Shown here one piece after another: positions 1,938 through 57,169 of a stretch of DNA of 64,000 nt. Source of the DNA: Octopus vulgaris (Eukaryota); assembly GCA_951406725.2 (NCBI GenBank), contig OX597830.1, forward strand, positions 2,232,001 through 2,296,000, read 5' to 3'. The position numbers and the translations under genes are program-made. Numbering within the stretch: the first letter of the stretch is position 1; every line of letters begins with the position of its first letter. A model generated the notes under the pieces. It did not search any database. It was not told where the DNA came from and was given only the letters and a program-made list of their open reading frames with translations.

Positions 1938-2948
1938 TCACGGATGCTTTTTAGTAAACGCCATCTGATGCATGAGATAGTTCGATGCAGCTGCCCTCAT
2001 CTGCACCTCCTGCCGTGAAGTTGGTTCATCCGGGACAACTGACAGGAAGAGATCCAGTCCTACTTTAAAGACATCCGCATCTACACCATGCAGGTCTCTC
2101 AGGTTCTTCGGGAGAATATTGAAGAGCTGTGGGCCTCTGAAGCCCAGGCTATCACAGTATCTTGTCCTACATCTTGATGGCAAATTTGGAGTCCTTGGTA
2201 CTACGCAGTGGCGCCCGGTTCTGGCATTTGTGTGACTCTCGATGCCAAAGTTTGGGACAAGTCCTTCCAGGATCTTCCAGATATATATTATGGCATATCT
2301 TTCTCGCCTACGCTCCAGGGAATAGAGCTTTAATCTCTTGAGTCTTTCCCAGTAGCTTATATGCTGCACAGAGGCTATCTTCTTCGTGTAGCTTCGTTGG
2401 ATCGCCTCAAGTTCTGTGATCAACTTGACACTGGATGGTGACCATAGCTGAGAGCAGTAGTCAAAGTGGCTTAGGACAAGTGTCTTCCAGAGGACCATCA
2501 TGGTTTCTTGTTCTCTTGTTCTAAAGGTTCTAAGAATCCATCCGGCCAGCCGTCTACATTTCATTGCCAGTTTAGCAACATGTACATGAAAGGTCGCGTC
2601 ATCACTCATGTGAATACCCAGGTCACGCACTGATTGTGCCTCTGGGATTGCAATCCCTCCGGGTCCAATGTATTCAATGGGTATTGCATTCAGTTTTGCA
2701 TGCTGATAGCATAAAGCCTGAAACTTTTCAGCATTGAACTGCATGCTATTCTTTTCAGCCCACTTGTATATTTTGTCCAGCTCATATTGCAGGTGCTTAG
2801 TGTCTTCAGGGGTCTGTATTGCCTGTGAAACTTTTGTATCATCTGCATAACTTGTGATCGTGGCTCTCTGCGTGGCTGAGGGCATGTCTGAGAGGGCCAT
2901 TATGAACAGTAGTGGTCCCAAAACAGTGCCCTGCGGAACACCGCTCAC
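1938..2948 (-). pseudogene. LINE ORF2 fragment: RT core and C-terminus
   Basis: 336 aa ORF with GVPQGTVLGP, YADD, SLERRR. Confidence 0.9.
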
Positions 2949-3139
2949 TATTTGACTACTACCACCTGACTTCTATTCTTCAGAAAGTCATGGAGCCATT
3001 CTCCCAATTATCCAACTATGCCAAGATCACGCAGTTTGTGACATATCATTCCATGATCGACTTTATCAAAGGCCTTTGCAAAGTCGAGATATATCACTTC
3101 CACATTTGAGTGGTTGAGCAGTCGTTTCAGCACCCAGTC

Positions 3140-4666
3140 TTAGTGTTGTAGGAGCTGAGTTAAGCAGCTTCTTCCTGGTCGGAAACCATGTTGGGTGTCA
3201 GGCAGCACGTCATTTTCTTCAAGGAAGGTGATTAGTTTCCTTCTGACTATTCGTTCCATGACCTTGCTGATGTGTGAGGTCAGAGAGATAGGTATGTAGC
3301 TCTTGGCCTCCGCTCTGCTACCTCCTTTATGAATAGGGCATATTTTACCTTCCTTCAGATTTCTTGGAAGTTTGCCAGTTGCAAGGAAGCTCTGAAAGAG
3401 AGACTGCAGTGGTCTTGCTAGAACTCTCTTACATACTTTTAGAAGGATTGCCGGGAATCCATCGGGGCCAGTAGCTGAGTTTGTTTTCATCTCATCTATA
3501 GCCTTTATTACATCGTCTTCCTTTATATTGATGTAATCAATCATCGCCGCCTCTGACCCCATATCTGCAGTGGTGAAGAAGTCAGTTGGATTGCTGATTT
3601 GGAAATACCCAAAGGGTGGGGTGAAAACACTCTTGAATTGCTCATTTAGTTTTTCACTTACCCTCATTGGATTTCCTGTGAGTGTGCCATCCCTTTCAAG
3701 GAGTGGCCCTATTCTACAGTGCACCGTAGCTGTTTCTTTGGCATACCTGTAGAAAGCTCTGGGGTTAGATTTTATGTTGTCTATAGCCCAGGGTTCTTTG
3801 TCTGCTCTTTCTTTTTCATGGGAGAGTTGCAGACATTTTTCAATTTCCAACAGTTTCATTTTCAGGCGGGACTTTTCACTGCTTTCAATTTGTTTGTTTA
3901 GGCGATTTGAGATTTTTGTACGCCGTCTCATTAGAATTTTCCTCTCTCTGGGGATTTTATTCTTGTGTATAGTGGCCTTTCTCTCTGGGACACATTTGTA
4001 GCATATGGCTTGCATTACAGACATGAATTGTTGAAGTTTCATGTCGATGTCTGGCGAGGAGAGACATTCAGGCCCGTTTTGTTTGAGGATCTCTTTCCCA
4101 ATTTGTTTCCAGTTTGCCTTATTGAAGTTCAAGCTGGAAAGATTCTGAGAGTTTCTTGTAGGCTGCATGTCCATGCTTTCCTTTGGCCCGAACATAGTCA
4201 GCTCTACCATGTTGTGATCCGAGAGTAGTGTCGGTGTCACTTTCACATTATGGATGAGATCCATATTATTTGTGAAGCAGAGATCCAGTGTGTTACCTGC
4301 CATGGTTGGTTGGAGTATTACTTGCTCCATGTACAGGGTGTTGATGAGGTTCAGGAGGGACCTCGCATGTCCTCGTTCACATCTTGTCATTCCTGGGAGA
4401 GAAAGGCCCTCGGGCCATCTGACATTGGGTAGATTGAAGTCTCCCATGAGAAGTACACTTATGTGCTGTTCTAGTGTGACTAGAACTTCTTCTATTTTTA
4501 TAAGGCAGTCTTCAAACTTGCCCATATGGCTTGGGGCATCTGGAGGGCGATATGTAGCACACACAACTACACCAAGTTGCCTTACATGTACAATTAGTGT
4601 GTCACACACCGAATTTGAGTATGACAAAAGGACCTGGGGTGTGAGGTCCTCACGGATGTACATAGC
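3140..4666 (-). pseudogene. LINE ORF2 fragment: APE endonuclease and N-terminal RT
   Basis: ORF track 3140..4756; its first ~30 codons are TA-repeat readthrough. Confidence 0.88.
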
Positions 4667-4700
4667 ATATATATGAGTGTATATATACACATATACACTC

Positions 4701-4733
<33 letters not shown>

Positions 4734-5699
4734 TATACATATATATAAATATACATATATATATATAATTTACTTCAAACATGTGATCTTCATGAGAGAA
4801 TGTTCAAATTTTCCAATATATTTTATCCTTTTGCATCATAGGAAGGACTTCTATAAATTTGTCTTTAAATTTGAGAAACTCTTTCTATTTTCACGATATA
4901 TTTTATATACCTGATATTTCCTTGATCCCATCCCCTTTTTTATACATTATACCAATTTTTCCCATTATTTTCTAACTTAATGATATTTTTTCTCTGTAGC
5001 TTCTCGATTTGCTTATTGATTGATTTCTTTTCCATATTTTCTAAATGGTTTTCTTTAATAAGATTTTAAGAAGAGTAAAAAAAAAAAAAAGAGGATAATC
5101 TGGAGAAAGTGAGTAAGGAAGATTTTGCATAAAACAAGTAAGTGTGGAGTTAGGTTAGCAATTATTTGGAGTATCAAATTATGGAGAAGTTGAGAGTATC
5201 AGCTAAAATATTCCAAAAATAAAGAATGCAGGAGAATGTTGCTTCTCTTTGACTTTCATCATTTTAAACTCAATTCTATTATTGTTTGATTTTGTTGTTG
5301 TTGTGTGCACGTGAAGTCGATTGTTTGCTATGCCACACTGACAAATACAAGACGATTACCAAATATCTATTATAAATGTTTGATAAAGTCCACCCCAGAA
5401 ATCACACTCTCCCAACTTTTTAACAACATCATTACAATACAATCTAAACTGATTCATTTGCAATTCTTTCTCTCTATTTCTAACATTTCATGGAGGAGAA
5501 GCATTTTTTGGTTCCAGTGAAATGATTTCCATAAATGACTCAACTGTCTCAGATGCAAATCTTAAGAATCACTAAAGCAGCTGATAGTTTTGTTCCTGTG
5601 ATACTAATGTTCATGGCTATGTGTTCCCTTGTATCCTTTTTTATAAGGGTTTAAGACCAATTCCTAGTAAATCTCACCCTTTTATTCACTTCATGAAAT

Positions 5700-29353: not shown

Positions 29354-29560
29354 TTCTATCTACTCTAGACGCAGGGCCATTTTGGTGGAGAGGGCAAGTC
29401 ATTTACATCAACCCTAGGGCTCAACAGGAATTTTATTTTAATGATCCTGAGAAGATGAAAAATATGTCAACCTCAGCAGGATTTGAACTTGGAATGTAAA
29501 AACAGGAGAAATGCTGCTAAGCATTTTGTCTGACATGCTAACGATTCTACCAAATTGCTA
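29354..29560 (-). mobile_element. SINE family A, diverged
   Basis: ATTTGAACT..AAATGCTGCTAAGCATTTTGTCTGACATGCTAACGATTCTACCA is the reverse complement of the family A head. Confidence 0.7.
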
Positions 29561-29628
29561 CCCTTTTAATAAAAGCAATAATGATGATGATGATGATGAT
29601 GATGATCACAATAATAATAATAATAATA

Positions 29629-31803
29629 ATAACCTGCCTCCCTACTATGTTCAAGGCATTTACTGCAGTGATATCGCAAAGGCTGAACAAGCACCTGGAC
29701 GAAAACAAACTGTTCCCAGAAGAGCAGAAAGGATGCCGCAAGGGCTCATATGGCTGTAAAGATCAACTAATGATTAATAAAGCCGTAACTGAAGACAGCC
29801 ACAGAAAGAAGAAAGGCCTCAGTATGGCCTGGATTGACTACAAAAAGGCGTTTGATAGCATCCCCCACACATGGATCCTCAAAACACTAGCCATTAACAA
29901 AGTAGCACCAACAATCATAAAATTCATAGAGCACTCTATGAATAAATGGCAAACAGTCCTACACCTCCAAACAAAAGAGGGACTCATGAAAACCAAAGAC
30001 ATCCCCATTAGAAGAGGAATATTCCAGGGAGACACGCTCTCTCCACTCCTTTTCTGCTTGGCACTGTCACCTCTATCTGATATGCTAAATAGAACTGGAT
30101 GTGGATATAAATGTTACAGCAAAACGATCAGCCACCTTTTATATATGGATGACCTAAAACTATACGCTGCAAATGACAAACAGCTGGAAACACTATTAAA
30201 GACAGTTCATGGATTTACCAAAGAAATAGATATGAAATTTGGATTAGAAAAAATGCGCCAAAGTAACCATGAAAAGAGGAAAACTAGTTAAGAGTAACAA
30301 CATCACACTAGATAAAACAAATGAAATAAAAGAATTAGACCAAAGCCAAACTTACAAATACTTAGGAATCCATGAACTAGATAAGACACAACACACACAA
30401 ATGAAAGAGAAAATAAAAAAAAGAATATTATAGACGAGTTAGATCAATACTAAAAACAGAGCTCAATGCTAAAAACAAGATAATAGGTATCAGCACTTTA
30501 GCTGTCCCAGTTATAAGTTACAGCTACAATATCCTTAACTGGACACGAAATGAACTGTCCAAAATAGATAGGAAAACAAGAAAAATACTGACAGGATCTA
30601 GGATGCATCACCCAAAATCTGACATAGAAAGACTATATATACAACGTATAGAAGGTGGTAGAGGCCTTATACAGCTGGAAAACTACTATAAAATAACCAC
30701 CATAGGACTGCAAAAATACCTACTTCAGAAGGAAGGAAAACTGATCCAGATAGCAGCAAAACACGAGCAAAACAAAAAACTGTTCTCAGTATTTAAGGAA
30801 GCTGACAAATACAAACAAGAAATCATACCACCTAATAAAAACGAAGAAGAAGAAGAAGAAGATGAAGAAGCAACAAAAGCTATAAAACAAATGAAATCCA
30901 AACTAAAAATAGAACAGCAACGAGCCATGATAAAACGATGGCAAGAAAAGCCCCTTCATGGTAAATACTGCACTAAACTAAACGCAAAAGAAATAGACAA
31001 AGAAAAATCCCAGCAATGGTTGAGAAGCTCAGGACTCAAAGCAGAAACAGAGGGATTTTTAATTGCAGCACAAGACCAAAGCCTCCCCACCAGAAATTAC
31101 CAAAAACATGTAATGAAAAGAAATATTACAAGAAACTGCAGAATATGTGGAGATGGACAAGAAACAATAAATCATATTATCTCTAGCTGCCCAGTCCTGG
31201 CTAAGAAGGAATATATTCACAGACATGACAGAGTTGGAACCTACATACATTGGAAGCTATGCCAACATTATGGAATAACAACAGAAAAAAGATGGTATAG
31301 GCACACACCAGAAAATGTCACAGAAAACGAGAAAGCAACCATACTCTGGGATATGCCGATACACACAGATAGAGAAATTAAGGCCAACAGACCAGATATA
31401 GTTGTCAGAGATCATGAAGAAGAAAAATGCTTTCTAATTGATGTATCAATACCGGCAGATGACAACGTGTCTCTAAAAGAAATGGAGAAACTCTCAAAAT
31501 ACAAAGACCTGGAAATAGAGGTAACTAGAATGTGGAACCTGAAAACAGAAACAATTCCTATCATAGTAGGTGCATTAGGCATGATAAAAAAATATTCAGA
31601 CAAATACATAACAAAAACACCAGGACTTACAAACACATATAACATACAGAAAATTGCACTACTAGGCACTGCACACATCCTACGCAGAACACTTTCCATA
31701 CAATAACCATCAGAGCATCACAACAAATCACAGCACATACCCAAGGCACACAGAGCTGCGCTCGGTAGTGAAGTGAAAGCACGCTATAAAAATAAAACTA
31801 CTG
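29629..31803 (+). mobile_element. 5'-truncated R4/Dong-clade non-LTR retrotransposon (RT, CCHC knuckle, restriction-like endonuclease) inserted in (TAA)n
   Basis: ITCLPT, EQKGCR, WIDYKKAFDS, GIFQGDTLSP, YMDD, YKYLG, CRICGDGQETINHIISSC, RHD, RPDIVV..LIDVSIP; ORF ends 31706; (TAA)n on both flanks; only two +1A frameshifts (30248-53, 30415-22). Confidence 0.95.
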
Positions 31804-41278: not shown

Positions 41279-41601
41279 ATAAATTATTAGAGAGTTATCC
41301 ACTATGTGGACAACTCTAGTGCTAAAAATAGCTCCGAAGCAACCACAGAAGATCAGTTTCCAACTAGAATCAACATACATTTAACGGAAGGAAAGTGAAA
41401 TACAACGAATAAAATAGATTGACTCTATACAATTGCATGAGTCAATCTATTGTATAGAGTCAATCTATTTTATTCGTTGTATTTCACTTTCCTTCCGTTA
41501 AATGTATGTTGATTCTAGTTCGAAACTGATTTTCTGTGGTTGCTTGAGCTATTTTTAGCACTAGAGTTGTCCACATAGTGGATAACTCTCTAATAATTTA
41601 T
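41279..41601. repeat. Long inverted repeat: arms 41279-41433 and 41449-41601, 15-bp spacer
   Basis: Arms are reverse complements apart from 2 substitutions and a 2-nt indel. Confidence 0.95.
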
Positions 41602-41701
41602 GTATAAATTTGTATTTTCTCCGTAGTTTTTTGTGCTAAGCCACTTGGTGTTAAATTAATGGTATTATTAAATTAATATCGATTTTTCACCCTCATTTAT
41701 A

Positions 41702-41765
<64 letters not shown>

Positions 41766-41792
41766 TTTATTTAAAGCAGCAGAAAATTCAAC

Positions 41793-41839
41793 AAAACCCG
41801 TTACTCTGAGTTTCCCCTTGACGTTCGTCGGACGGTTTT
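41793..41839 (-). ncRNA. Type I hammerhead motif (variant core CCGACGA)
   Basis: Minus strand aaaaccgt-CCGACGA-acgtcaaggg-GAAA-ctcagag-TA-acgggtttt; stem II poorly paired. Confidence 0.6.
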
Positions 41840-41888
41840 TGCTAGAAAATAATATGTAAAATAATATGTGACAATTATTGAATAGCCA

Positions 41889-41951
41889 AGATAAAACTCT
41901 GAGTTTCGGATGCCGAGGTGGAAATCCACAACACCATCTCTTCGGTTATCT
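41889..41951 (-). ncRNA. Type I hammerhead motif, left arm (variant core CCGAAGA)
   Basis: Minus strand agataa-CCGAAGA-gatg..catcc-GAAA-ctcagag-TT-ttatct; perfect 6-bp stem I. Confidence 0.65.
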
Positions 41952-41962
41952 GGCAATCTCAG

Positions 41963-42025
41963 AGATAACTGAAGAGATGGTGTTGTGGATTTCCACTTCG
42001 GCATCCGAAACTCAGAGTTTTTTCT
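41963..42025 (+). ncRNA. Type I hammerhead motif, right arm (intact core)
   Basis: agataa-CTGAAGA-gatg[gtgttgtggatttccacttcgg]catcc-GAAA-ctcagag-TT-ttttct; stem I has one mismatch. Confidence 0.7.
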
Positions 42026-42231
42026 TGACTATTGAATAATTGTAACATATTATTTTAAAGTTAAATTTCCTCTATTTACATAATATTGAGGTCTCTTTCT
42101 TTCTTTTGTTATCTTACCGTTTTTGCCAATATATATATATATGTGAGTGTTTGTATATATGTGCATGTGTGTGTACCTGTGTGTGTGCCTGTGTGTGTTT
42201 ATATATGTACATAAATATATATATAAACACA

Positions 42232-48031: not shown

Positions 48032-49942
48032 ATGTCGAGAAATCTTATCGTAGAGCAGTAATCTGCGATTTTTTCTAAGGAGGATTTTCCTGCTTTGGGA
48101 AAGACAGTCAACAAAGACGCTGCCACAAAGAATGATAAAACAGTAATCAACACCTCCACCACCAACACCAAAACTACCACATCTACAACCTCCACTGACA
48201 CAACAACAACAAGAATAAGAACAACATAAATGAAGTAAATATAAATGTCGATGATGTTTCGCAAGATTTGATTATCTCACCTATTAATGGTGAAGATAAT
48301 ATTAACAAGACAAAAGTAACAGTTCCTGAAAAAGCTACAAACACTACAGCAACCAACAATAATTCTGATCCAAAACAACAAAAACACACAACGACAACAA
48401 CTGCCAGAAGAGAACTGTGAATTTCGCTGACACGCTGCGTCAAAAAAAAGAAATTGTACATTTCACAAATGAAGAGTTGGTGGAGACACGTTCACTCTTC
48501 ACAACTTCAGGACAAAATTTAATTCTGTACACACCACAGCATGTGAAAGAAGATGTGGAGAAGAGAACAATTTTGTATAGAATTATGTAAAAAAGAATCA
48601 AAAAAAACAGAACAGGTAACAAAAGCAGACATTGAAAAATGTGCCAAACACATTATGAAAATCAAACAATACATAAACTGGGGTCCCCAATTTAATACAG
48701 TGCTGGTCCGCTTCCATAATCAGGAAGAGGCAAAAGCTCACTCTACGGAGACATTACAAGATGAAGAACTCGTCATGGTCCCATACTACATGGGACAAAG
48801 AGTGAGTAAGATAAAAATAAAAAATGTTCCGCCCGAAATCCAACCCAAATGGATAACATCGGTGATATGTTATCATTTAAAATCAATTAACATTTTAGAA
48901 GTCGCCGTTGTAAAAAATGATAATTGGAGTGGGAAATCAACAGAAGTCAAAATCCAAATAGAGGAGAGCTCAATTCAAAAGTTACCCGATATTATATATT
49001 TGAAAAATGGCCAAAGCCTGTAAGTGGTGGCGGAGGGTAAAAAAGCACGATGTTACCGCCGTGGCAGCCCAGACCACTTAATCGCAAAGTGCGTTTATGG
49101 ACAGAAAAAACAAGAAAAAACAAACCAGAAAACAAATACAAAACAACCTCTTCTACCAACACCACCAAACCCACAACTGATACAAGAATTATATAGAAAT
49201 ATGGAACAACGCCAAGAACAACAACAAACTAGCAAACAAACCCCAACAACATCACCAAGAAAAGAAACAGCACCATCACAATTACCACTGACGTCGCAAC
49301 CAAATAAAGAAGCAAAACCACAACCAACATCAAAAGACAGACCAACACCAGCACCAAGGACGACAACTAAGAAAACAGATAACAGTGACGAGAAGACAAA
49401 TTCTACCTCTAACACCACAACAACACAAACACTTTCTACAAACATACATATTAACGCAAATGCTTTGCCTTTACCCCATTCTGATTCGTCAGACTCTTCG
49501 TCTAACGACGAAAGTTCGACGGAATGGCAAATAGCCACAGGGGGTAAAAGGAAAAAATCAAAAAAGCCCACCAAACAAGCAAGTAAAGCAGGGAGATATT
49601 TAACTCCTGACAGCCTCTTAGACAATCAACCATCAACGACCCCGCTAAACCACACTCACATCTAACAGCAATAGACACGGACAATAAAAACTAATGGAAT
49701 ACATTGCATCTTACACAAACATTTGTGAAGATGACTTTAAAGTAGATAATCATCCAGGAACTACACCACCGACATACATAAAAATTGTACACATCACACA
49801 AACACAGCACCACACACTCACAACCGTCTTTCCAAATGCAGTCGGGGGGTTTCAAAAGTACTTGTCTAAAAAACTTTACAAACACCTCCTCAAAGACATT
49901 TCAAAAGAAGAAAAAACTCAAACTTTCGAAATGAGTAAGTGA
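48032..49942 (+). pseudogene. Tx1-like ORF1 (gag-like, CCHC knuckle), disrupted
   Basis: ATG at 48032; pieces 48553-49023, 49024-49665, 49694-49942; knuckle CYRRGSPDHLIAKC (one Cys to Arg); T/Q/P-rich linker. Confidence 0.75.
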
Positions 49943-50001
49943 CCTTCCCTCTTGCCTCTTTCAATGTAGCGTGTGAAACACAAATTTCTTAAACATCAAT
50001 T

Positions 50002-52038
50002 ATGCTTAAATTAGGTTGTGTGAATGTGCGTGGCTTGGCGTCGGCTTGGAAGCAAGGTTACCTTCTAAACGACATCAAGTCACTGAACTGATAATAGCTA
50101 TCAGTGAAACCAGACTCAGCAAGCCGCGGGCCCTCGCGTCCATGTTTGGCGGTCAATTCGACATTTATTTTTCTCCCTGTCTGCCGAACATGGGTGGTGG
50201 GAGTACCGCGGTGCTTTTTCGAAAGAGTCTAAATGTAAAAGTAAGAACAATATTCTAGACCCGGAGGGTAGGCTGGTTGTCTTGGACGTGGATGGCAGAA
50301 ATGGGTTTGCATTCCGTCTGATGGCAGTTTATGCACAGTCCTTAACGGGTCGGGCAGATTTCTTCAGACGTCTAGAGGTTTTCCTGGGTACGTCTAGACC
50401 TTTACTGTTAGTAGGGGATTGGAACGCTACCTTGGACACGCATCTGGACTATGTGGGAATGGATAGGAATAGAAGGGGGTGTAAGTGCCTCAAAGACCTG
50501 CTCAGACGTTTCCATTTGTCTGACAAGTTCCGACTCGACCATCCCAATGTGCCAACGTGGACTTGGTCAAACCGCGTCGGATCGTCGAGAACTTATCTAG
50601 ATAGAATTCTATGCATGACAGAGGATAGGGATAGTGTAGGATGTCCACAATTTAAAATAGTCAGCTACACAGATCACAAATTTGTGACGTGTACGCTCGA
50701 CTTAGATAAAACACATAGACAGGATCCCGGTTACTGGAAACTGAACACATCGCTCTTAGCGCGACAGGTTTACAGGAACCGGATTAGCGAGTTAATTAAG
50801 AGGGCGTTGATGGGAGCCATCGTTAACAACCGCTGGTGGTTCGCCCTGAAAATGGCAATAAAATCGGAATCAATTAGGTTTAGCAAGGAATTAGCGATAG
50901 ATCGAAATAGAGTAGAGGGAGAATTGGTTAAGAAACTAGAAGAGGCACTTACTACTGGCAGCGTAGCCAACGTGCTGGCTGCGAGGATGACACTCGACCA
51001 ACATCTCAACGCCAAACACGAAGGTTGCGTCGTCAGAGCTAAAATGCGTGCCTTAAGGAACGAAGAGATCGAAGCTGCACGAGAGGCCCGGGTAGCGGAG
51101 GCGCAACGTGGCAACAGAGCCACCATTCGGTCTCTAATAGATCAACAGGGATGCAGTTTACTCGAACCCGAAAGGATGTGTGAAGCCTTTCAACAGCACT
51201 TTGCTCGACTGTTTGGTGCGAGTGGTGGGTAGGAACGCGGAATGGATTTCAGTGCCTACCTGACCGACCTGCCGCGGCTCTCGGCAAGGGAAGCGGAGTG
51301 TTGTGAAAATCCCATCACCGCCGCCGACGTGCGGGATGCGAAGGCGAGCTGTGCGAGGGATAAGTCGTCTGGATTGGATGGTCTACTCTACGAGCTGTAT
51401 TGTCAAATGCCAGACTTGTTTGGCGACCTCTTGGCATCAGTCTACTGCAACTGGCAACAAAACGGGAGAATCCCCGGTTTCGTGAGCCGAGGTGCTGAAG
51501 AAAGACCCAAACAAGGGGAATTTTATAGATAATTTCAGGCCCATCACTCTGCTCAACGCAGATTTGAAAATTTTGGCCAAAGTAATAGCCGAGAGGTTGG
51601 CGATTGTCATTGGTAAACTGGTCGACAGGGCGCAAACATGCGCCGTGCCGGGCAGAACCATACATGAAAACCTCCATCTGATGCGCTATATCGTGGACAG
51701 GGTAGTTAAGGATCCTGGCATAGGTGGGGCGCTGATCAATTTGGATCAGTGTAAAGCCTTCGATAGGGTCGACCATCGGTACTTGGTGGCCGTCCTCAGG
51801 GTGGCTGGCTTCGGTCCCGTCTTCCGCGGTTGGATCGCTGCCTTGTATAGCGGCATCCGATCGGTAGTTCGGGTGAACGGTCACCTGTCGAAACCGTTTG
51901 ACATCACGCGTTCGGTCCGTCACGGATGTCTCCTGTCGGTGCTTCTGTATGTATTGACTCTCGAGCTGCTACTGCGGAAGCTGGCGACACTGAGGGGCAT
52001 CCCACGGGAACTGGGTTGCGGGACGAGCGTGTCGGCAT
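50002..52038 (+). pseudogene. Tx1-like ORF2, 5' part (APE + RT up to YADD)
   Basis: Starts MLKLGCVNVRGL; ends ..GCGTSVSA at the LTR insertion. Confidence 0.9.
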
Positions 52039-52276
52039 TGTTATGTAATCATCACAACAAACATGAACAATCAACGTTGCCCATTGTCTCCCTTGATACA
52101 AGGACATTCAGTAAGTTTCCCGCCACAACAAATACCTTGTACAACAACGGCAGTCTAATAAAGTATCTCGTATCGTTAACACGTTTTTTCAGTCTCTCTC
52201 ATTTTCTTAATCTTTCATACTAAGTACTCACTACTTCCTTTAATACTCAATATATTATATTTATATAACAACAACA
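52039..52276 (+). repeat. 5' LTR (238 bp)
   Basis: TGTTATG...ACAACA, contains AATAAA; last 140 bp repeated at 55826-55965. Confidence 0.93.
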
Positions 52277-52287
52277 TGGTGTCAGAA
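52277..52287 (+). promoter_or_regulatory. Primer binding site, tRNA-Leu type
   Basis: TGGTGTCAGAA immediately after the LTR; complementary to the tRNA-Leu 3' end ..UUCUGACACCA. Confidence 0.8.
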
Positions 52288-52354
52288 TACTAAAAGAACC
52301 CAAAATACAGAAACCAAAAGAAAAAAGAAGTTGAAATCATACTTCAAAGACGAA

Positions 52355-55300
52355 ATGGAAACTTTACCGCATCCAAAAGACCTAGACTTTAATCAGGAAA
52401 ATCTAGCCGCAGCATGGAAAAAGTGGAAAAAAGAATTCAATTTCTTTTTGATAGCAACAGAAAGTGACATGAAGCCAGACAAAGTAAAAACTTCAATGTT
52501 TTTAACTTGCATCGGTTCCAAAGGCCGAGACATCCATTCCACTTTGGATTTCGATTCACCCGACGAAGAAATGAACCTTCAAACAGTAATCGAAAAATTC
52601 GATGCATATTGTGAACCCAGGAAAAACATAACTTTCCTGAGACACAAATTCTTCACATGTGGACAAGCGGAACATCAAAAATTCGATGAGTACGTGATAG
52701 AGTTGCGCCAAAAGGCACAACAGTGCGAATTCGGCAACCTCACAGACAGTCTCACCAAACATAATTTGATATGTGGAATCAGAGACATGAGATTAAGAGA
52801 AAGATTATTGAGAGAACCAAATTTAGACTTACAAAAAACAATTCAAGCAGGTCAGAGTGCAGAGCAAACACGACTCCAATCAAGGATGCTAAATGCCACA
52901 TCCGAAACAAGAGATAACGAAATCTCGAGGGTATATAGTCAACACGACAGAAAAGGCGCCAAAACTCAAATAACTCGCCATATGCAATCCAGACATCAAA
53001 ACGAACAAGGCGGAAGTGACAGAAAGCCCGCGAAGTTTCAAGCGCCAAGTCATCACTACGTCACTAACTGTCACTAGTGTGGTTATAATCACAAAAGAAA
53101 TAAATGCCCAGCATTTCACAAGACATGTGAAAAATGCAAGAAACAAGGACACTATGCAAAAATGTGCAAATCAAGAAAATTTGTACATAAAGTAGAGATA
53201 CTTACCGACGATGAATCAGATGACGATACACATGCACTCGAAATGATCACTGCAAATAATTCCCGCGTGCACAAAATCGAAAAGTTCAAGACTCCAAAAG
53301 ACATTTGGACGATTGAACTAAAAGTGAACAACTCGAATGTAACATTCAAAATTGATACTGGAGCAGACGTAACCGTACTGCCATTCAGAGAATATAGAAA
53401 TATAATTCCAAAACCACAACTGCAAAAAACCTCAACTCGATTATAAACTTACAATAACACAGCTATAAAAGTGCTAGGAAAATGCACAGCAGTCATTAAA
53501 TACAAAGAATTATCAAAACAAATAAAATTCATTGTTGTAAAAACAAACTCGCACGCAGTTATAGATGCAAAGACAGCTAAAGATCTTAACCTAATTCAGA
53601 GAATTTCAAAAATAAAATCGTCGAACACAAACGACATAATAGAAAAATATGAAGACTGTTTCGGAGAAATCGGCACTTTGTGAATAACACATCATATCAC
53701 AGTGGATCCACAAATAACTCCTGTAATTCATCCACCAAAATCGGTTCCTTTTTCTATAAAAGAAAACTCAACAAAGAATTAAAAAGAATGACAGAATTAG
53801 GTATCATAAAACCTGTTAGTGAACCTACAGACTGGGTAAATTCCCTAGTCATCGTTGAAAAAGCCAACGGAAAACTCCGACTCTGTTTAGACCCCAAGAA
53901 TCTAAACAAAGCCATAAAAAGGCAACATTTCAAACTCCCTACAGCGGAGGACATTTTTGCACAAATGCATAAACCTAAATATTTTTCGAAACTCGATGCA
54001 TCTAATGGATACTGGCAAATTCCAGTTGACGAAGAAAGCTCCCATCTGTTAACGTTCAACACACCTTTTGGAAGGTATCGCTTCTCACGACTACCCTTTG
54101 GAATTCACAGCGCCAGTGAAGTTTTCCAAAAAGAAATTGCAAAAATAATAGAGGGCATAGAAGGAGCAAGAAATTCACAGGATGACATTATAATCTGGTC
54201 CAGCACTTTAGAAGAACACACAAATAGACTACAACAAGTTTTCGATCGAATCCGAAAGCACGGATTAAAGTTAAATAAATCAAAGTGTATCTTCTATGAA
54301 TCACAAATCAAGTACCTTGGGCATATATTAACCAGCGATGGGATAAAACAAGATCCAACCAAAGTACAAGCAATCATTCACATGCCACTGCCAACAAGTA
54401 AAAAAGAATTACAAAGATTCCTAGGTATGACAAATTACCTATGTAAATTTTTATCTAATTACTCCGAAGTTACAGCACCATTACGCCAGCTTCTACAGAG
54501 TGACACGTTATGGTCATTCGACAAACCACAAATCGAAGCAATAAAAAAGCTAAAAGAAATGATTACCAGAAAACCAGTGCTACAATTTTATGATCCAGAT
54601 CTACCAATAAAAATAACTACAGATGCTAGTAAGCATGGGCTCGGAGCGATACTTGAGCAGAAACACAACGAAAGATGGCTACCTGTTTCGTTTGCATCTC
54701 GTGCAACAACTCAAGCAGAACAAAACTACTGTCCGATAGAGAGCGAAGCTCTCAGTATAGTTTTCGCATGCAAGAAATTTCATCAGTTTATATACGGAAC
54801 TCATTTCAGAATCGAAAATGACCATAAACCGTTGAAGCAAATATTCAAAAAATCGATCACTAAATGCCCCACCCCGAATCCAAAGATTTCTACTAACATT
54901 ACAAAGATATGATTTTGACCTAAACCACATACCTGGTAAAGAATCAATTGTTGCAGATACCCTATCACGTGCATACCTTGAGCAAAATACTCCAGAAGTA
55001 TCAGACGAAGATATGAAATCGCACATACATGCAGTAATAAAAAATTACCCCATAACCGACACTAAATTAAACGAGTATAAAGAAGCCACTGCAGACGACC
55101 CGTCACTACAGACACTCATTACATATACAAGAACAGAATGGCCCCCAAAAGACAAAATACCAATAAACATCAAACCATTCGTCTCCGTTCGTGATGAAAT
55201 ATCAATCATCAATGGTCTCGGTCTAAAAGGTTCAAGAATAATTGTACCTAAGTCATTACATAGAGAAGCTCTACAGGAAATACATACCGGACACATGGGT

Positions 55301-55522
55301 ATCGAAAAATGCATAGAGAGAGCCAAGGAATGTATATTCTGGCCTGGCATTAACGCTCAAATCAAAGACATGATTAACACATGCTCATGCTGCATCCACT
55401 ACAAAAACCAACAATCAGCCGAACCACTAATAAATCGTGAAATACCTACTACACCATGGACCAAAGTGGGTACAGACGTATTTCACCTGTCTGGAAATTC
55501 GTATGTCACAATAATTGCGTAA
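52355..55522 (+). pseudogene. gag-pol polyprotein, disrupted
   Basis: Gag NLAAAWKKWK, double CCHC knuckle (53069-53167), protease KIDTGAD, RT LRLCLDP/LDASNGYWQI/LPFG/QDDI, RNase H TDAS/E.EAL/DHKP, integrase zinc finger HTGHMG..CSCC. Confidence 0.92.
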
Positions 55523-55830: not shown

Positions 55831-55965
55831 CAACAACGGCAGTCTAATAAAGTATCTCGTATCGTTAACACGTTTTTTCAGTCTCTCTCATTTTCTTAAT
55901 CTTTCATACTAAGTACTCACTACTTCCTTTAATACTCAATACATTATATTTATATAACAACAACA
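55826..55965 (+). repeat. 3' LTR, missing its first 98 bp
   Basis: 139/140 identical to 52137-52276 by manual comparison. Confidence 0.93.
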
Positions 55966-57169
55966 GGCATATGCGGACGATGTCACCTTCATAGTGTCGA
56001 GCGAAAAACACATCCAGATGATAGGCGTGACACTAAAAGAATACGAAACGGTGACGGGAGCGAAAATTAACCCGGAAAAGTCAGTGGGTTTGCTACTCGG
56101 CACCTGGAGAAGCAAGCCTATACCGTCCAACTGCGACTCAGTAGTGGGATGCTGGACGGACGGACCAGTTAAATTGCTCGGGGTCTGGTTCAGTCCGGAC
56201 CTCCAAATGGATAAGAACTGGGACGAGATCACGAGTAGAGTGGTCGCTCTCAGCCAAACATGGGCCGAGAGAAAGCTGTCTCTAAATGGTCGGGCGGAGG
56301 TGGCGAACGCGTACATCGCATCCGTCATCGATTACCGCCTGACCGTCGTGCCTTGTCCCGACGCCACCATCACCAAACTGGAGCCCATACTCTTCCGCCT
56401 CCTGTGGAAGGGTGGCGTTCCGATGGTGAGGAAGTCCATTTGCTGTCAACATCCGTTGAATGGAGAACTGGGCATGCCGAGGTTGATGATGCGCAGGCAT
56501 GCGCTGAGACTGCAACTTACAAACGACTAAAGCGTTCTATAGAGGACTAGTGGAGGGAAGGTCCGACGACACACTCGGGGCAAACCTGGGCGTCGACGAG
56601 AAATTCCTAACCCGCCTTTTCAAGGCGACGTTCGGTCCGGGGCCTATGGATAACTTCCAGAGATCCCTGGCTTGGCAATGCTATCGAGACGCACTACCTG
56701 TTCGAGAGAAGAGCTACAGGCATGGTTCGAAAACCACCACCGGACCGACCTGCCCGAGATGCGGTCAGAACGATGAAACCGTTCTGCATGCACTCGTGCT
56801 GTGTTCAGATATTTAAGAGCTGTGGACCTTCGTCGAACAGCTGTTGTCGCGTGTAGGACGGGCCCGCTTATCGGCCGAGTCTATCGTGAATATTTTCCAC
56901 CACCTTCCTTTAAACGGGAAGGGAGAACGGTTTTCGTAACACTGGTGCCGATGGCGAAAGAATGTGTGTGGTGGACGCGTTTGAAAGGGCTACAAACAAA
57001 CACTTTCCTCTCTGGTCAGTCTCTCGTCAACTTTTTCAAGTACCACTTGAAAAGGAGGATGAGAATAGGGAGGAAGGCTTTGTCGAATGAATGTTTCAAT
57101 AAAAAGTGGGTAAAAGTGGCAAAAATGGTCAGTATGAAAGACGACACCATTTTAAGCGTAAATCTGTAA
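55966..57169 (+). pseudogene. Tx1-like ORF2, 3' part (YADD onward, zinc finger)
   Basis: AYADDVT, GAKINPEKS, KLLGVWF, LSLNGR, GELGMP, CPRCG..H...C. Confidence 0.9.

Follow-up and report, generated by a model that had tools for sequence, protein, structure and literature searches.

The insert and its three hammerhead motifs

The window, by which we mean the whole 64-kb stretch of octopus DNA that was analysed, carries an insert between two TA arrays, (TA)30 at 41705-41764 and a short TA run that begins at 42129, as originally predicted. The three type I hammerhead motifs predicted within it were recovered at 41793-41839 (minus strand), 41889-41951 (minus strand) and 41963-42025 (plus strand). 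We refer to them as HH1, HH2 and HH3; GAAA-CTCAGAG-TH is present in all three. The 12-mer that covers GAAA and stem III matches exactly at three places in the window, all of them inside the insert, and with one mismatch allowed there are four window matches against 0.53 expected, a number reached in 0 of 100 shuffles. A search of the insert against Rfam returned nothing at gathering score. The inverted repeat exists and has hammerheads on both arms, but its length is 107 nt at 90% rather than the 95 bp first given (arms 41845-41951 and 41963-42069, spacer 11 nt). What had been read as a single insert of about 365 bp consists instead of two elements from different families, termed A (41852-42129) and B (41764-41851). 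The features are as follows:

41705..41764, no strand: (TA)30 microsatellite, the insertion target common to the insert and to the family C element at its left; TA flanks recur at the same ends elsewhere
41764..41851, minus strand: family B solo 3' end (pLTR), 5'-truncated, assigned to a Hydra-clade PLE, older CCGA subfamily
41793..41839, minus strand: HH1, type I hammerhead with stem III ACUCAGAGU and a GUA site; stem II is damaged relative to the family
41825-41831, minus strand: HH1 core, CCGACGA
41852..41951, minus strand: left arm of the family A foldback, a tail-less pLTR 3' end whose truncation lies just 5' of stem I
41889..41951, minus strand: HH2, type I hammerhead with a 6-bp stem I, a long irregular stem II and a GUU site
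41939-41945, minus strand: HH2 core, CCGAAGA, the family majority
41952..41962, no strand: inversion junction of the A foldback
41963..42061, plus strand: right arm of the family A foldback; of four non-CpG sites that tell subfamilies apart, three are unlike those in the left arm
41963..42025, plus strand: HH3, with stem I broken at its third pair
41969-41975, plus strand: HH3 core, CTGAAGA, a minority state in family A
42062..42129, plus strand: 68-nt PLE tail, equivalent to the sequence between pLTR end and ORF start in tandem full-length A elements
41281..41704, no strand: family C foldback, outside the present finding; the copy is truncated inside stem III

Elsewhere in the window, the broken frames of an LTR retrotransposon lie at 52244-55522 (plus strand); we take these to be Gypsy-like, with gag-like, RT/RNase H and integrase-like frames, the names being based on motifs. 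Fragments of several LINE-type elements with endonuclease and RT frames were also seen (1938-4774, minus strand; 29542-31706, 48547-52223 and 55958-56530, plus strand), and that at 29542-31706 presumably resembles the restriction-like-nuclease clade.

Two families rather than one composite unit

The genome searched is 2.8 Gb in size and rich in microsatellites. With the 366-base insert as the query we obtained at least 2,118 candidates; among the best 40, which were scored, all 39 besides the window itself match only from query base 89 or later, while the first 88 bases, which correspond to family B, have 234 candidates in the genome. Family A, for which there are about 4,000 core matches (3,958), starts and finishes at identical TA junctions at 30 loci, the window included, with one of the two ends being the end of the tail, and these copies differ from the majority sequence by 4.1% on average. 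Family B occurs elsewhere either solo or as a foldback of its own with its own tail, and the window piece departs from the majority of 25 other copies at 5 of 82 bases. The B-A composite is absent from the 29 other A loci and the 29 other B loci examined. Among 13 pairs of co-oriented motifs that lie 72-102 nt apart genome-wide, two are an A followed by a B, namely the window and locus L206, and these two pairs have different junctions and different B subfamilies. We attribute the A/B neighbours at both loci to the TA targeting that is common to the two families.

A template switch between B and A RNAs, by which the B piece and the A foldback would stem from one integration event, seems to us improbable. 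It would fit the few AT-rich bases that separate the two pieces, the 12-nt direct repeat at their junction and the likewise short gap at L206; however, the A end is complete and sits at the TA junction usual for it, B loci often show a solo B end with TA after it, and B fragments are found near A copies elsewhere with TA between them (L006, L026), as shared targeting predicts. We observed two families with autonomous parents, TA flanks, a tail on one arm only and CCGA as the majority state. The proposal of a non-autonomous unit with three hammerheads fails on two counts: both pieces are truncated ends of autonomous, protein-coding PLEs of the Hydra clade, and among the other loci examined the composite was not seen again.

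The coding parents of families A and B

Walking upstream from family B led to a full element (L091) that has the ORF, a 3' pLTR and two further pLTRs, one inverted and one direct; parents of this family have many intact frames of 727 aa in a unit of about 3.36 kb. For family A, 20 fetched stretches gave 14 frames of 698-717 aa that are 96-100% identical, some of them in 2.58-kb tandems. The A and B proteins are 44% identical to each other, and at E<=1e-20 there are 1,037 full-length relatives among 7,998 scored sequences. The 717-aa (A) and 727-aa (B) frames are each a single ORF with RWK, DKT, an RT core and, C-terminally, a GIY-YIG-type nuclease; the nucleases have a CxCX5C linker, a CxxC and a CxH and have no CCHH motif. 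Pfam gave no match for A or B, either as fragments or as full frames. Naiad PLEs have an N-terminal nuclease, a DKA motif and no canonical hammerhead. A Naiad origin, which would explain the missing ribozyme of that clade, was ruled out by the C-terminal position of the nuclease and by the DKT motif.

The published diagnostics of the Hydra clade include RWK, DKT, CxCX5C and CxxC/CxH, and nearly all of its members insert in (TA)n (PMC8557442). As described for that clade (Craig et al. 2021, PMC8557442), A and B lack cysteines between the GIY and YIG-like halves of the nuclease and have a type I hammerhead near the 3' end, an inverted truncated pLTR with tail and a (TA)n target. The A and B elements have pLTRs in direct and inverted orientation and a tail at one end, next to (TA)n; an inverted truncated pLTR, a one-sided tail and a (TA)n target are described PLE anatomy (PMC8557442, PMC3846280). 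Three differences from the published material can be named. The core is ccga in A and old B, whereas all 26 of the published rows have ctga (CUGA), rows that were found with a canonical descriptor and are therefore biased (PMC8557442). The octopus entry Hydra-1_oBim in File S2 of that paper has other stems, and neither the A nor the B motif occurs in File S2. The tail is about 70 nt long here against 30-40 nt in the clade as published (PMC8557442). The canonical CUGANGA is found in the pLTR of young B and is absent from A and old B, and for this reason we call A and old B variant Hydra elements. From the motifs listed, the parents of A and B appear to be Hydra-clade PLEs. The expectation that type I hammerheads of this kind reside in PLE terminal repeats was borne out, as they lie in the pLTR ends of these parents (L091; the 717-aa and 727-aa frames).

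Two observations concern family A outside the window. At G000:C1:57208924-57222508 (L234, L235) there is a young two-armed array with six A hammerheads in 2.58-kb tandem units on both strands, with several intact 717-aa frames, which suggests recent activity of the family. At L248-L253, young A copies have a common 5' frameshift that leaves an open frame of 664 aa; since the frameshift recurs at several loci, it seems that a defective master was copied in trans.

Stem III and the predicted dimers

In a dimer of type I hammerheads, the strand that completes stem III runs through the cut site into stem I, and therefore both stems are exchanged. Stem III had been said to be unable to close a monomer loop. 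In fold prediction a closure of 3 bp with a 3-nt loop is possible, at +2.1 kcal/mol when taken alone, and within the family A fold the closed form is at -18.9 kcal/mol and the open form at -18.7 kcal/mol; the duplex of two stem III 9-mers is at -7.4 kcal/mol. A homodimer held by the palindromic stem III is the predicted fold, in keeping with the dimeric action first suggested: unconstrained cofolds of young A with young A, young B with young B, and HH2 with HH2 gave double hammerheads. Unconstrained cofolds of young A with young B, of HH1 with HH2, and of HH1 with itself (a damaged copy) were not hammerheads.

The original prediction had HH1 and HH2 act as a heterodimer through their common stem III within a mobile non-autonomous unit. 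The two motifs do share a strand and an identical stem III and are 93 nt apart, and a second A-then-B pair exists at L206. The strand exchange just described requires stem I to pair across the two partners, and in neither direction do HH1 and HH2 form a contiguous pair at the junction (0, compared with 4 and 6 for self-pairing); the proposed ribozyme thus has neither a cross stem I nor a hammerhead cofold. HH2 is moreover locked in a hairpin, and the composite is missing from the 29 and 29 other loci. The identical stem III 9-mer is published for Penelope-3_HM, and stems III of the form actc-N-gagt occur in 5 of 25 Hydra families (File S2, PMC8557442), so the shared stem III is a published trait of the Hydra clade. 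Head-to-head B/A hybrids with a gap of 68-98 nt number 0 in the genome, while same-family close pairs, counted by hand, number 15 among the first 100 motifs listed. According to the modelled structures, an A/B heterodimer hammerhead cannot form, and we regard the heterodimer model as extremely improbable.

Folding of the whole cassette predicts a hairpin of about 100 bp on both strands, at -164 and -160 kcal/mol. Read-through of either strand would place the family A motif behind its own antisense arm in the transcript, and on the minus strand the stem III of HH2 pairs with that arm at p >=0.998. Both A motifs are thus predicted to be trapped in the foldback hairpin and silenced. Two features of stem II, an extra base before GAAA in family A and a length of only 2-3 bp in family B, may weaken catalysis further.

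At L202-L203 (G000:C6:16176542-16176717) we found three A hammerheads in direct tandem with a period of 82 nt, a micro-satellite of ribozymes in which same-family dimers could form in cis.

From these observations, we consider it very probable that the locus holds a head-to-head foldback of the end of a Hydra-clade PLE (A) beside a solo truncated B end, likely placed there by separate insertions in one TA run, and that the hammerheads are the normal terminal-repeat ribozyme of each family, for which activity is predicted only in same-family dimers of tandem element RNA, and silencing within this foldback. Taken by itself, the cassette is retroelement debris of an ordinary kind.

The CCGA core is a lineage state

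A type I hammerhead is expected to have an invariant U at position 4 of the core, and at this position HH1 and HH2 have a C; HH3 has the U and a broken stem I. The CCGA core had been left as either an inactivating change or a family variant, and the data favour the latter, since it is present in 42/42 hammerheads beside young A elements (20 stretches). Genome-wide, 13,344 motifs combine this stem III with a C-N-GA-N-GA core, and 7,676 of them have C at position 4; a hand count of the first 100 listed gave 64 C, 35 T and 1 A. Among the first 100 of the 3,958 family A matches there are 95 C, 5 T and no purine. CCGA as decay specific to single copies is ruled out by this majority state in A (95/100 listed; 42/42). 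The young A sequence is also present in the contigs of four runs, where no difference is listed at the core position. Among 60 A arms, 56-60 retain the other core and stem III positions examined, a conservation that among young A copies reflects in part recent copying from few masters and not selection.

Family B is divided. Its older subfamily has CCGA (60 fragments, 6.7% pairwise) and its young subfamily CTGA (42 fragments, 1.7%), the young intact copies having it (written CUGA) in 34/34. Older relatives of A with a different loop II also have CTGA. As both the young intact B and these older A relatives have CUGA, U4C is not needed for success. Stem I differs in sequence yet pairs in A, B and C, the junction with stems I and II being present, and the loop II hairpin of an older A relative is compensated.

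With CCGA as the family A state, it is the CTGA copy of the window, HH3, that is deviant. T is found at core position 4 in 9/59 A arms, against 4/60 at another CpG and 1.7% at non-CpG sites, and the HH3 core is likely a product of CpG decay. A-to-I editing of the foldback was considered as a source of T-to-C changes when all changes looked like A-to-G on the plus strand; this was rejected because CCGA is a family state and the substitution spectrum of 30 A copies (A>G 43, T>C 41, C>T 64, G>A 63) has no A>G excess.

Further CCGA hammerhead families were seen at G000:C1:364433, C1:2524052, L281 and L020, one with the same stem III and a short stem II and the others with different stems III. One minimal hammerhead family has 4 CTGA and 3 CCGA members.

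Between lineages, position 4 has switched from U to C or back, with the stems and the remaining core retained, and U4C is therefore likely to be tolerated: as judged from these sequences, it would give a slower ribozyme rather than a dead one. The contrary reading is that U4C inactivates the hammerhead, that A, old B and C spread without cleavage, and that the motif is a hitch-hiking or protein-binding structure. We think this unlikely, while granting it appreciable weight. In an anole PLE, catalytic mutations had no effect on insertion in vitro and RNA ends at the cut site were not found (PMC11167929); a dead motif keeps its share of probability because cleavage was dispensable for insertion in that system. 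Activity in vitro is considerably lower with U4C (PMC3088659, citing Ambros and Flores 1998). A metagenome scan gave at least 123 motif hits, and of those listed 35 have a stem I of >=4 bp; all 35 are CUGA under a pattern that allowed C or T, and they comprise about seven stem sequences, many being copies of one family. In A, B or C there is no pile-up of 5' ends at position 0 of the cut site and no copy starts exactly there, in a sample of loci that is biased in that they were chosen by queries containing the whole motif. Against loss of function, the same pyrimidine swap is seen in the unrelated A, old B and C and in a further family, with a purine in only 1 of the first 100 motifs listed; families with proteins 44% identical retain the UH site, covarying stems and the remaining core bases; and the viroid with U4C stayed infectious (PMC3088659).

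Tolerance of U4C has a described parallel in the natural viroid variant, which is much weaker in vitro and was viable, the activity being sufficient in vivo (Ambros and Flores 1998, via PMC3088659), and the single core change in A, old B and C is the same. In the viroid, as described there, U4C is a rare variant (PMC3088659), whereas here it is the majority state, found in more than 7,600 motifs of the genome and in a young family whose ORFs are intact.

Family C and retrozymes

Family C, a copy of which lies to the left of the insert, is a young non-coding family with a tandem unit of 493 bp, copies 97-99% identical and at least 2,146 candidates. Its type I hammerhead has a 6-bp stem I, a long stem II and a perfect 8-nt palindromic stem III unlike that of A and B, and the core is CCGAAGA in 19/19 contexts of intact copies; in the window copy the inversion falls inside stem III. 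Tandem same-strand non-coding units with a hammerhead and with no coding parent, as expected of a non-LTR retrozyme, are what we find in family C, which looks like a retrozyme moved by PLE machinery. In having a type I hammerhead in dispersed non-coding repeats it resembles the animal non-LTR retrozymes as described (Cervera and de la Pena 2020, PMC7229834; Li et al. 2026, 10.64898/2026.07.22.740005). The A and B insert was also considered as a non-LTR retrozyme; it traces to coding PLEs and contains no tandem same-strand repeated unit, and this identity was therefore rejected.

A possible origin of the foldback

For a PLE protein studied in vitro, both target strands were cut and extended, and reverse transcription started at the two ends of the tail (PMC11167929). 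Two such starts match a foldback in which the pLTR end closes one arm and the tail end the other. By analogy, the GIY-YIG nuclease of the element would nick both strands of (TA)n, reverse transcription would begin on one side from the pLTR end and on the opposite side from the tail end, and both copies would stop just 5' of the hammerhead and then be joined head to head. Formation by a double nick with reverse transcription from both ends of the tail is what we infer for the A foldback. In other A copies a short palindrome just upstream of stem I coincides with the inversion junction or lies close to it.

The two arms of each foldback were compared by hand at four non-CpG diagnostic sites; three further columns at the arm ends were dropped because the tail-less arm does not cover them. 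Agreement was complete in 23/30 foldbacks and 12/120 comparisons differ. Three of the 30 differ at two or more sites, and the window arms differ at 3/4, far above 1.7% per site, which makes two templates or a later conversion likely. Such discordance would also be expected if the dimer interface of stems I and III served mainly to pair two element RNAs in a dimeric RT complex, much as in retroviral dimer linkage; the two arms would then come from different RNAs and cleavage would be secondary, which would account for U4C having been able to fix repeatedly. That A/B hybrid foldbacks are absent and that the inversion lies just 5' of stem I fit as well. Gene conversion, or a source with unlike 5' and 3' pLTRs, nevertheless explains the same arm data, and discordance of the arms is a weak argument on its own; we give a primary role in RNA pairing only a small chance of being correct.

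Conclusions

In the literature searched, whose coverage of PLE hammerhead variants is incomplete, we found no report of U4C in PLE or cephalopod hammerheads. Lunse et al. (2017) reportedly treat PLE hammerhead variants, and U4C could already be contained there. The motifs described here resemble the minimal PLE hammerheads of Cervera and de la Pena (2014, PMC4209133) in being of type I, with a palindromic stem III and a predicted action as dimers. That description includes opposite-strand pairs 100-700 bp apart, and low activity of these hammerheads is expected; its core variant is U3-A8 and not U4C, and stem III is longer here, at 9 nt (PMC4209133).

Searches limited to CUGANGA would overlook more than half of this motif class in the genome (7,676/13,344). 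Within one genome, two young Hydra families share stem III and have intact ORFs but differ in the core, CUGA in one and CCGA in the other. This constitutes a natural experiment, and the contrast between A and B makes it directly testable whether PLEs need hammerhead cleavage.
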